Source of the DNA: an uncultured Verrucomicrobiae bacterium | GTDB taxonomy: Bacteria > Chlamydiota > Chlamydiia > Chlamydiales > Rhabdochlamydiaceae | Reading direction: 5' to 3' | Length of the DNA stretch: 64,000 nucleotides | Assembly (NCBI GenBank): GCA_963707995.1 | Contig: OY970179.1 | Span: 1,424,266 to 1,488,265, forward strand | Notes under the pieces: model-generated | What the model was told of the DNA's origin: nothing | The model's database searches: none | The model's input: the letters and a program-made list of their open reading frames with translations, nothing else | Shown: positions 56,593 through 58,733 of the stretch, in pieces | Layout of the letters: every line of letters begins with the position of its first letter | Numbering within the stretch: the stretch's first letter is position 1 | Translations under genes and position numbers: made by a program

Positions 56593-56761
56593 TAGACTGT
56601 GCCCGCTTAGGTTGTGTGAATTTTGAAGGTCTTAGAACGGCCCATATGTCAGCTGTCGCGACGAACAATGTATTGATTGATCCTTTGGAGGAGCGACAGC
56701 TGACAGATGGACCGTTATAATGGCCTTAACAATTCACACAAACTAAGCGGGCACAGTATAG
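56593..56761. mobile_element. MITE family B, copy 2 (169 bp), in inverse orientation to copy 1
   Basis: It is the reverse complement of copy 1 with a few substitutions. It contains the ATG and first ~18 codons of the P-type ATPase ORF. Confidence 0.75.
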
Positions 56762-58733
56762 CCCCATTTGTCTTTGATGAGTTTTTTGCTTCGGGTAAAG
56801 AAGAAAGTATTAGCCCTTTTCTGACTCCCCAATCTCGAGGCTGGGGGAAAAATTTAACCTTGAAGACCGCCCTCTTTTCAGGGTTTTTGCTTTTCTCTTC
56901 GTTTACGGCGTCGTTTTTTCTACCACCCCTGTCCCACCTTTTGCTCCTTTTCGTCTATTTTTTTGCAGGAACTCCGGCGCTTTTAGGGTCGATTGAAGAC
57001 ATCAAAAACCTCGAGATCAACATCGATGTCTTAATGACCCTGGCCGCCCTTCTTTCAGTGATGATCGGCAGCGGGATGGAAGGGGCGCTTCTACTCGTTT
57101 TATTCGAGCTGTCCGCAGCGATGGAAAATACAGTCTCAGAAAAGACGAAAGGCACTTTGCTGAGCCTTCACCAGCTCTCTCCCCGCTTTGCATGCGTCCT
57201 CTCTTCTGACAACACACTTTATGACAAAGCGGTCAAAGAGATCCCGATCGGTACCCACCTTCTGATTAAAGCAGGAGAGATCGTCCCCTTGGATGGGATC
57301 GTCGTCGACGGCAGCTCATTTGTGAATCTGTTCCACCTCACTGGCGAAAGCCACCCTGTTTCCAAAAAAAAGGGGATGAGGTCCAGGCCGGCGCCAGAAA
57401 TCTGGACGGGACATTAACCCTCATCGTCACTCGAACCAGTAGTGATTCCACACTGACGCGCATCATTCAGCTCATCACGGAAGCACAAGAAGCCAAACCC
57501 AAGCTGCAACGTTTTTTGGACCGGTTTGGCAAATGGTATGCGATGACGATCATTTCACTTTTCTTTATCTTTGCTCTCACGCTACCTTTAATTTTTTCTA
57601 TCCCTTATCTCGGAATCGAAGGGGGGATTTACCGGGCGTTGGCATTTTTAATCGCCGCTTCCCCTTGTGCTTTGATCATCGCAACACCCACCGCTTATTT
57701 AAGTGCGATCAGTTGTTGCGCCCGGAAAGGGATCCTTCTCAAAGGGGGAGTGGTCCTCGACGCCTTAGCGAATTGTAAAAGGATTGCTTTTGATAAGACG
57801 GGAACCTTGACGACAGGCAAACTCAGTTGTGTAGGCATTGAATCTATTTCAGCCAAACAACCGATTTGCAGTGTCGACGAGGCCCTTGCGATCGCCTATG
57901 GATTGGAGCGGAATGCAGTCCATCCGATTGCCGATGCCATCGTCGCCTTTGCCAAAGAAAAGTCGGTAAAACCAAAGGAGCTCCTCGAGTTTAAAGCCGT
58001 TCACGGTTATGGGCTAGAAGGGAGAATCACCCTCGATGAAAAATCAGCTCTTGTCTTTATCGGTCACGGCGAGTTCATCGCAGAGAAGATCCCCGCTTCC
58101 CTCAAAAAAAATTGGGAATCGATGCAAACCACTCATCAGCGCGAGGGGCATCTAAGCACCTTATTGCTTGTCGAGGAGACTCTATTTCTCTTCCATTTTC
58201 TCGATACGCTCCGTCCTGAAGCGATCCCGCTGATCGATCGTTTAAAAAATCGAGAGGGCTTAAAGCCGATGATGCTCACAGGGGATCATTGGGAGATCGC
58301 CCGCGCCGTTGCAAAACAAGTCAGAATTGACGATGTCTTTGCGAATTTGCGTCCTGAAGATAAGCTTGCCAAAGTGGCTGAAGTATCGAATGATGCAGGG
58401 TTAATCATGGTCGGCGACGGGATTAACGATGCGCCAGCGCTTGCGCGCTCGACTGTGGGAATCTCTCTTGGAAAAATCGGCAGTGCCACTGCCATCGATG
58501 CCTCCGATATCGTCTTTCTCAACGATGATCTCTCCCTCCTCGACTGGCTTGTGCGCAAAGCAAGGCACACCCTTTCCATTGTCAAACAAAACATCTCACT
58601 TGCGCTTTGTGTGATCGTTTTTGCAACAGTCCCTGCTCTGCTCGGCCTCATTCCGCTGTGGATTGCAGTCATTCTGCATGAAGGGGGCACCGTGCTTGTC
58701 GGCTTAAACAGCTTGCGGCTGCTTAAGAAGTGA
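56707..58733 (+). pseudogene. P1B-4-type heavy-metal (Co/Zn/Fe-class) P-type ATPase, interrupted by a -1 frameshift in an A8 homopolymer
   Basis: Two track ORFs, 56707-57417 and 57516-58733. Reading through the A-run at 57364-57371 with one extra A gives the continuous 'LTGESHPVSKKKGDEVQAGARNLDGTLTLIV...', the conserved actuator domain. Downstream motifs are 'SPC' in TM4 'AASPCALIIATP', 'DKTGTLT', 'MLTGD' and 'MVGDGINDAPAL'. There is no N-terminal metal-binding domain and only ~6 TM helices, as in the P1B-4 class. The N-terminal start lies inside MITE B. Confidence 0.7.

Follow-up and report, generated by a model that had tools for sequence, protein, structure and literature searches.

How is a metal-transporting ATPase encoded when its reading frame, as assembled, starts inside a transposable element and breaks off at a run of eight adenines (A8)? 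The question is raised by a locus of a soil Rhabdochlamydiaceae bacterium, contained in a stretch of 64,000 nt (hereafter the window; assembly GCA_963707995.1, contig OY970179.1, positions 1,424,266-1,488,265 of the forward strand) whose first nucleotide is position 1 in all that follows. At this locus, a miniature inverted-repeat transposable element (MITE) interrupts the 5′ end of the ATPase gene and the A8 run (57364-57371) splits the remainder into two open reading frames (ORFs). A first-pass annotation of the sequence had offered a sequencing error, a pseudogene or a phase-variable switch as reasons for the split and had credited the MITE with the current N-terminus. The explanation that we find best, and regard as probable, assigns the two lesions to different causes: the MITE insertion is genuine and recent and cut off the native start codon, and the A8 run is an undercall of nine adenines (A9).

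Reading frames and class of the ATPase

As assembled, the ATPase is divided between two frames of the forward strand. The 5′ fragment (56707-57417, 236 aa) begins at an ATG within the MITE and carries the membrane segments MA, MB, M1 and M2 and most of the A domain (PF00122); its frame (frame 1) closes 46 nt past the A8 run, at a stop codon at 57415-57417. The 3′ part (57372-58733, frame 0) supplies the rest of the A domain, M3, M4 with an SPC motif, the DKTGT motif, the N and P domains, M5, and M6 with a HEGGT motif. Frame 0 is open from 57270 to its stop at 58731-58733 and meets frame 1 at the A8 run. Inserting one A in the run gives the codons TCC AAA AAA AAA GGG GAT (...SKKKGDEVQAGARNLDGTL...) and a 675-aa translation (hereafter the repaired protein; predicted tract-spanning peptide, ...ESHPVSKKKGDEVQAGAR) that matches P-type ATPase models end to end, as the first-pass annotation had anticipated for an A9 run.

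The repaired protein scored 555.8 bits against TIGR01525, the model of heavy-metal P-type ATPases (cut-off, 346), and 475.7 bits against TIGR01512 (cut-off, 313.5). The corresponding scores were 345-384 bits for ZntA models with cut-offs of 1005-1240 and far under the cut-off for the CopA equivalog. Pfam matches were to PF00122 (E1-E2 ATPase, 7.4e-50) and PF00702 (HAD hydrolase, 2.1e-23); the Pfam scan found no HMA or other N-terminal domain in the repaired protein, and only about 55 residues precede MA. The closest solved structure is 7QBZ (1.8e-97 over residues 79-673 of the repaired protein), that of sCoaT, the archetypal P1B-4 pump (PMC8880997). This class is defined by SPC in M4, HEGxT in M6, an M2 glutamate, eight helices and no classical metal-binding domain (PMC8880997). 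In the repaired protein, AASPCALIIATP (residues 317-328) aligns with AASPCALAIATP of sCoaT and places SPC at residues 319-321 in M4, where the motif is invariant across 123 homologues. HEGGT (658-662) in M6 aligns with HEGST of sCoaT, with H658, E659, G660 and G661 invariant in the same 123 sequences, and E125 aligns with E120, the M2 glutamate of sCoaT. Further motifs are DKTGT (363), TGES (212) and GDGIND (570), and a hydropathy scan returned eight segments (56-72, 75-94, 104-120, 115-131, 281-297, 311-327, 627-649 and 649-667). The P1B-4 assignment made in the first-pass annotation thus agrees with SPC in M4, HEGGT in M6, the lack of an HMA domain and the best solved relative, all of which support, at the level of sequence, a P1B-4-type transition-metal export pump that is a new member of its class. 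Other members are PfeT of B. subtilis, CtpD and CtpJ of M. tuberculosis, CzcP of C. metallidurans and the plant HMA1. We also considered the P1B-2 class (ZntA-type pumps with CPC in M4, a Lys in M5 and DxG in M6) and ruled it out, as the ATPase has SPC rather than CPC and carries HEGGT at the M6 position.

A transposable element in codon 4

The element at the 5′ end of the gene (MITE copy 2, forward strand) occupies 56595-56758 and is a near-perfect palindrome of 164 bp bounded by two copies of a TA target-site duplication (56593-56594 and 56759-56760). With the flanking TA included, the outer arms of the palindrome span 56593-56629 and 56724-56760, and inner arms span 56632-56659 and 56693-56720. 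A first copy lies in the opposite orientation at 51460-51622, just past the stop codon of a 144-aa gene, and is 93% identical to copy 2; none of 100 shuffles gave a comparable match. The duplication was read from a comparison of empty and filled sites. Two contigs, GCA_049802055.1 (L001/L100) and Logan SRR28041818 (L002/L104), are collinear with the window, with flanks 98.6-98.9% identical, and carry the empty site AATCAAATAGCACC (AAA-TA-GCA); the filled site in the window reads AATCGAA-TA-[MITE, 164 nt]-TA-GCCCC. Copy 1 is flanked by C-TA...TA-G, implying a CTAG target, and the GCA_049802055.1 contig terminates inside this copy. A 4-bp duplication of ATAG in place of TA was rejected, since the flanks of copy 1 are CTAT and ATAG and all copies of the family share only TA. 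It follows from the TA-only duplication that a T at the first position of the left repeat in copy 2 has changed to G.

An insertion at this site is present in a single lineage, and the site is empty in every other assembly examined. Because it is empty in strains with flanks about 99% identical, the element appears to have been active recently, and we infer from these alignments that the insertion in the ATPase gene is itself recent. The junction of the MITE-bearing lineage (GGGCACAGTATAGCCCCATTTGTC) had 0 matches in JGI metagenome contigs.

The element belongs to a dispersed family. A scan of species-representative genomes for the MITE-arm motif returned 97 stretches, many of them in Chlamydiae metagenome-assembled genomes (MAGs). 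The loci listed (80 of 97) gave 25 full copies with 136-148 nt between the arm motifs, from Chlamydiae and Planctomycetes-Verrucomicrobia-Chlamydiae (PVC) MAGs. Together with the two copies in the window, 27 of 27 copies are flanked by TA on both sides, with variable outer bases. At one locus (L005, ~5195-6369), the same terminal repeats stand about 1.17 kb apart, flanked by TATACCGCGCCCGCTTAGGTTGTGTGAA...TTCACACAACCTAAGCGGGCGCGGTATA, and enclose ORFs that match HTH_23/HTH_33 and DDE_3 (1.1e-20). Because this longer element shares the terminal repeats and carries HTH and DDE_3 ORFs, the MITE is, as judged by its sequence, a non-autonomous derivative of IS630 (IS630/Tc1-mariner-type transposase) and represents a new sequence family of a well-known kind.

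Several observations on related elements stand beside this assignment. The transposase of the L005 element (5195-6369) is split into an HTH part (5296-5907) and a DDE_3 part (5931-6335), as would be seen in a frameshifted or degraded copy or with a programmed frameshift, which occurs in some IS630 members. Within the window, inverted-repeat arms (TACCGCGCTCCGTCAGGTTTTGTGAATTT...) resembling terminal repeats of IS630-type MITEs lie at 20416-20504, 33184-33255 and 35578-35618 and are probably a second subfamily or fragments. Two other palindromic MITE-like elements (14628-14797 and 44618-44756) are unrelated in sequence to the ATPase MITE; an element of the 44618-44756 type also occurs in GCA_049802055.1 (9607-9747), at a different place.

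The native start codon

The relatives of the ATPase show where the gene once began. A large protein collection held 6,546 homologues at E <= 1e-50, the closest of them from Rhabdochlamydiaceae MAGs. The nearest homologue (P0001, encoded by both collinear contigs) is an uninterrupted protein of 661 aa and is 99% identical. It and every close relative (eight fetched homologues and five more cluster members) begin with MN(x)3P(F/Y)(I/V)FDEFFASGKEE, and near-identical relatives without the MITE begin with MNQIAPF. The collinear contigs read ...TTTTAA ATG AAT CAA ATA GCA CCA TTT... at the start of the gene, and the window reads ...TTTTAA ATG AAT CGA ATA G[ACTGTG...CACAGT]A TAG CCC CAT TT. Thus, the native ATG, which the first-pass annotation had overlooked, survives at 56583, four codons upstream of the insertion and at the same place as the MNQIAPF start of the relatives. 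The insertion at the TA of codon 4 (ATA) adds 164 + 2 = 166 nt, a +1 change of frame, and the native ATG is therefore out of frame with the pump. It now heads an ORF of 45 codons (56583-56720, forward strand; ATG AAT CGA ATA) that runs into the MITE, stops at a TAA at 56718-56720 and overlaps the ORF of the MITE ATG by 14 nt. The FDEFFAS...SPFL motif downstream, invariant among homologues, is untouched by the insertion.

The native ATG also marks the junction with an upstream operon partner. A gene for a transporter of the VIT1/CCC1 family (55822-56586, forward strand, 254 aa) ends in a TGA (56584-56586) that overlaps the native ATPase start in the tetranucleotide ATGA; the VIT1 family (PF01988) is recorded on an identical protein in relatives. 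The gene order SerRS-M18 peptidase-VIT1-ATPase is kept in sister species with 80-85% protein identity, where the VIT1 stop and the ATPase start abut or overlap. From this arrangement, VIT1 and the ATPase would normally be translated in tandem in this family through overlapping stop and start codons (ATGA). As genomic context, the obligatory VIT1/CCC1 neighbor suggests Fe2+/Mn2+-type export.

A possible replacement start codon

The only start available to the pump frame is provided by the MITE. A scan for ATG, GTG and TTG found the ATG at 56707, in the right arm of the element, as the sole in-frame candidate between the stop at 56701-56703 and a TTG at 56860. Codons 1-17 from this ATG are MITE sequence, and codon 18 consists of the last MITE base and the TA duplication (predicted peptide, MDRYNGLNNSHK...). 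The scan and the codon mapping agree with the earlier claim that the only in-frame ATG and the first ~18 codons lie in copy 2. The further claim that the insertion created or replaced the N-terminus stands in part: the MITE does supply the sole in-frame ATG, but the native ATG persists out of frame, and a start at 56707 is predicted to exchange only M-N-Q/R for 17 MITE-encoded residues and to leave the conserved body intact. The nearest sequence resembling a Shine-Dalgarno site, GGAGGAG (56687-56693), is 13-15 nt upstream of the ATG. The MITE RNA is predicted to form a hairpin (-101.9 kcal/mol, z = -11.4) in whose stem ATG 56707 is paired. The only Rfam match, to a plant miRNA-precursor model, scored 35.7 bits (gathering threshold, 330) and was rejected as a generic match to a long hairpin.

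Could the element have been selected as a regulatory module that uncouples the ATPase from VIT1 and gives it a promoter or start of its own? A promoter-like sequence (GCGACA-17-TATAAT, 10/12) does lie in the right arm at 56693-56721, and the N-terminal motif of the protein is intact. However, the search for sigma-70-like sites in the MITE found this one alone, no more than in shuffles (mean 1.5), so that the site is at chance level, and a transcript from it would begin downstream of ATG 56707, with no in-frame start before the TTG at 56860. The confinement of the insertion to one lineage, with an empty site in all other assemblies examined, also speaks against a selected module, and we regard this explanation as very improbable.

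Eight or nine adenines

The length of the A run was compared in the window and six related assemblies. A8 is found in the window, which is part of a 2,089,781-bp contig (NCBI and ENA), and in ERZ25039518 contig_8971 (L101), a 521-kb contig with a Flye-style name. The five contigs of 4.8-24 kb all have A9: GCA_049802055.1 (18 kb), GCA_049797015.1 (L102, 24 kb) and the Logan contigs of ERR10755945 (L103, 7.4 kb), SRR28041818 (6.8 kb) and SRR28024243 (L105, 4.8 kb). Among these seven, only the window carries the MITE at this site. A8 is therefore limited to the two megabase-class or Flye-style assemblies. In both of these, the run stands in the same setting (TTTCC-A(n)-GGGG); runs of seven or ten adenines (A7, A10) were absent from the assemblies compared. 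Further members of the 661-aa cluster, from JGI and Logan, are also uninterrupted. The 521-kb contig represents another allele lineage (ATPase 96.2% identical to that of the window) and differs from the 7.4-kb A9 contig by 2 substitutions in 6.4 kb (99.95% identical), with the tract as the only indel. Because A8 recurs in a contig that lacks the MITE and is near-identical to an A9 contig, the length of the run tracks assembly type rather than lineage. A search of JGI metagenome contigs with a tract pattern allowing A8 or A9 gave 0 matches, the pattern being too strict, as several close alleles read GDEI (GAG ATC) and not GDEV.

Long-read MAGs with this style of naming come from nanopore-only Flye assemblies with one round of Medaka and no short-read polishing (PMC12313526). 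Homopolymer calls of R10.4 reads vary at lengths of 8-9, and bins below 40x coverage need polishing; from 40x upward, runs of fewer than 11 nt are as a rule resolved in the R10.4 consensus (PMC9262707). We consider it fairly probable that the tract is in truth A9 and was undercalled in the long-read consensus; the ATPase gene is, then, probably a single ORF. The first-pass annotation had proposed comparing orthologous genes for tract length and N-terminus, and that comparison returned A9 in five of five short contigs and the native MNQIAPF start without the MITE. Among the three origins first proposed for A8, it favors a sequencing or assembly error; the lack of conservation of the tract in sister species weighs against a selected phase switch, and the absence of decay (see below) against an old pseudogene.

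Some findings weigh against an undercall. That A8 goes with long reads is judged from the size of the contigs and the style of their names. The MITE and the A8 split, with the same 236-aa product, recur in a Logan contig of ERR11718639, which would confirm both independently if that run is a short-read run; a Logan contig of ERR11523676, however, matches an ERZ250395xx contig at 100% identity over 5,040 nt, so the Logan ERR runs and the ENA assemblies may derive from the same reads. In a sister species, a contig of the ERZ250395xx series has A9 in frame at this codon position, and the pipeline therefore does not always undercall A9. Elsewhere in the window, a coding 9-mer (6013-6021) stays in frame, and the 64 kb yielded no further split gene linked to a homopolymer; candidate overlapping ORF pairs there were complete genes or had no domain match. 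Finally, a gene that has newly lost its start is just the kind in which a genuine secondary slip of an A9 tract could persist.

Selection on the ATPase gene

That last point leads to a possible reading in which neither lesion is an artifact and the ATPase gene has only just become a pseudogene: the MITE removed the start and the coupling to VIT1, selection was relaxed and the A9 tract then lost one A. In its favor are two independent lesions in one gene, the slippage-prone nature of A9 tracts (the most slip-prone), the position of the MITE ATG in a stem of -102 kcal/mol behind a poorly spaced Shine-Dalgarno-like sequence, and A8 calls from two assemblers for this lineage; the lack of another homopolymer-linked split gene in the window also indicates an assembly that is not generally error-ridden. 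The coding sequence, however, carries no mark of relaxed constraint. The ratio of non-synonymous to synonymous substitution rates (dN/dS) of the ATPase against GCA_049802055.1 is 0.039 and is the same 5′ and 3′ of the tract. When polarized with three sister species, the substitutions number 20 synonymous and 2 non-synonymous on the window branch and 22 and 6 on the branch of GCA_049802055.1. One window residue (G540R) departs from alignment columns that are at least 90% conserved, within the range of intact homologues (0-6), and neither half of the ATPase coding sequence contains further stops. A dN/dS of 0.039, one unusual residue and no extra stops give no support to a decaying pseudogene and speak against an old one. 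The absence of coding decay means that any inactivation was very recent or that the gene was not inactivated. A young pseudogene would also have to account for A8 in an unrelated, MITE-free lineage that is near-identical to an A9 contig, which would take a second, independent inactivation of similarly recent date, confined to the other long-contig assembly. We therefore hold a very young pseudogene to be possible, with about one chance in four, and keep to a genuine insertion combined with an undercalled A9 tract.

The synonymous divergence (dS) of the gene deserves separate mention. Between 56758-58733 of the window and 4926-6902 of GCA_049802055.1, dS is 0.146, about 3 times that of four upstream genes (0.014-0.06, about 0.05). 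This excess suggests that the ATPase segment was exchanged between lineages, in an allelic replacement by recombination.

Possible recoding at the A8 run

If A8 is taken as real, the sequence itself offers a way around it. Positions 57366-57372 read A_AAA_AAG in the upstream (zero) frame, a -1 slippery heptamer of the dnaX type, and a -1 shift there leads to GGG GAT GAG and to the wild-type ...SKKKGDE.... The pump could then be made by a -1 slip, through addition of an A by RNA polymerase, or under the control of an A9/A8 phase switch of metal efflux. The occurrence of A8 in two allele lineages and the perfect preservation of the downstream frame are consistent with such schemes, and the heptamer and its wild-type outcome are read directly from the sequence. 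Nevertheless, the 60 nt that follow the run are no more stably folded than shuffled sequence (z = -0.35; 66 of 200 shuffles as good), which gives no sign of a stimulatory structure, and no AGGAGG-like or Shine-Dalgarno-like stimulator was seen upstream of the run. Nor is the A run conserved, as sister species use AAG AAA AAA at the tract; its length follows assembly type and not lineage, with neither A7 nor A10 among the variants. All relatives checked other than the Flye-style long contigs have A9 and need no shift. Taken as a whole, expression from a genuine A8 by these routes is improbable, at a little under one chance in ten: programmed recoding or a selected phase switch is unlikely, and low-level rescue by ribosomal or transcriptional slippage is possible. 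Poly(A) frameshifts in intracellular bacteria are reportedly rescued by transcriptional slippage.

Possible consequences of the insertion for expression

Under the explanation that we favor, the MITE of IS630 type inserted at the TA of codon 4, duplicated the TA and thereby separated the native, coupled start from an otherwise intact pump gene, leaving ATG 56707 as the only start in the pump frame and the native ATG at the head of the 45-codon ORF that ends inside the MITE. If expression persists, it could follow a relay. Ribosomes would initiate at the native ATG, open the hairpin as they translate the 45-codon ORF, stop at 56720 and begin again 14 nt back, at ATG 56707. The pump predicted from this second start would carry 17 MITE residues in place of MNQ, ahead of the FDEFFAS motif. 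Expression in this strain would be reduced or dependent on the relay; alternatively, the insertion may just have silenced the gene.

A more elaborate version keeps both lesions real and has the pump made by the same relay (VIT1, native ATG, 45-codon ORF, stop at 56720, MITE ATG) followed by a -1 shift at A_AAA_AAG or a transcriptional slip. We consider it quite improbable, at rather less than one chance in ten. Were it true, the recurrent A9/A8 switching in two lineages would amount to a tunable, phase-variable metal-efflux pump in an environmental chlamydia.

Neighboring genes and other repeats in the window

Downstream of the ATPase, the locus is strain-variable (58734-59646 in the window versus 6903-9770 in GCA_049802055.1) despite about 99% identity of the flanks. 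In the window, this segment contains a DUF4258 gene (58850-59170) followed by a 155-aa ORF (59179-59646); the two may form a toxin-antitoxin-like pair. In the lineage of GCA_049802055.1 and ERZ25039518 contig_8971, a 134-aa gene with a ubiquitin domain (PF00240) directly follows the ATPase, and a Fic-domain gene is also present that is without counterpart in the window. On the reverse strand, 59665-61122 encodes a 485-aa protein that combines a NADAR domain (PF08719) with a tyrosine-phosphatase domain (PF00102); the combination is kept beside the ATPase locus in relatives, and the protein is a candidate secreted effector.

Other repeats are spread over the window. A family beginning with TATACCCAAGTGAATTCAAAA occurs at 36848-37023, 48581-48756, 26144-26193 and 30254-30453, including a 176-nt pair that is 90% identical and one copy directly after the gene for tRNA-His (36764-36838). 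Tandem coding repeats, each in six overlapping copies, have units of 126 nt (2590-3642, in the forward-strand ORF 79-3705) and 120 nt (34190-35095, in the reverse-strand ORF 33279-35417). His/Asp-rich codon repeats (runs of CAT, GAC and GAT) at 15880-15939 and 20943-21068 may encode metal-binding low-complexity tails. Two long reverse-strand ORFs (3987-5237 and 5289-6197) share a frame with a single stop between them and could be two genes or one with an in-frame stop.

Comparison with known systems

The pump, the MITE and the probable homopolymer error are all of known kinds, and nothing here is categorically new. The locus serves as a worked example of a gene in a long-contig MAG that would be annotated as frameshifted and possibly phase-variable and that is better explained by a homopolymer undercall next to a genuine MITE. 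It cautions that, in long-read MAGs left unpolished, a homopolymer that differs by one base should not be taken as a sign of pseudogenization or phase variation. As in nanopore-only homopolymer indel errors, the gene call is split by a change of one base in the length of a 9-nt A run, and only in megabase-class or Flye-style assemblies; on the other hand, the A9 of a sister species at this codon position came out correctly.

The ATPase shares with sCoaT of Sulfitobacter sp. NAS14-1 (7QBZ/7QC0) the SPC and HEGxT motifs, the M2 glutamate, DKTGT, TGES, GDGxND, eight predicted helices and the lack of a ferredoxin-like domain. It differs in MB, which has Ala-Gly in the place of the Gly-Gly kink of sCoaT. 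Its short N-terminal tail carries the family-specific invariant FDEFFAS...SPFL in place of a stretch rich in His, Cys and Met. A further difference from known P1B-4 pumps is the fixed position of the gene beside, and overlapping with, a VIT1/CCC1 gene in this chlamydial family. The conserved and, by its overlap, translationally coupled pair of VIT1 and a P1B-4 ATPase in Rhabdochlamydiaceae points to metal export of the Fe/Mn/Co type as a fixed trait.

The MITE extends a known kind of element to an IS630-derived family that is spread through environmental Chlamydiae and appears to have been recently active. Bacterial MITEs derived from IS630/Tc1-mariner elements with TA duplication include the Correia elements of Neisseria and the cyanobacterial Nezha. 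The chlamydial element resembles these in its size (~140-165 bp), its non-coding and multi-copy nature, its long terminal inverted repeats, the TA duplication and the long RNA hairpin. Unlike them, it forms a sequence family specific to MAGs of environmental Chlamydiae and PVC bacteria, and copy 2 lies within a coding sequence (codon 4) and not in an intergenic region.

Insertion into genes recalls the palindromic elements of Rickettsia, which are reportedly found inside protein-coding genes. Those elements insert in frame and are carried inside the protein. The two cases have in common a palindromic mobile element that lies in an ORF, in a bacterium with an obligate intracellular life, and that supplies some residues of the predicted protein. 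In contrast to the Rickettsia elements, the chlamydial insertion adds 166 nt (+1 frame) and cuts off the native start, so that its residues could enter the protein only via the new start codon. A MITE that severs a start codon and yet offers an ATG of its own is thus a natural case that could serve to test termination-reinitiation through a transposon hairpin.

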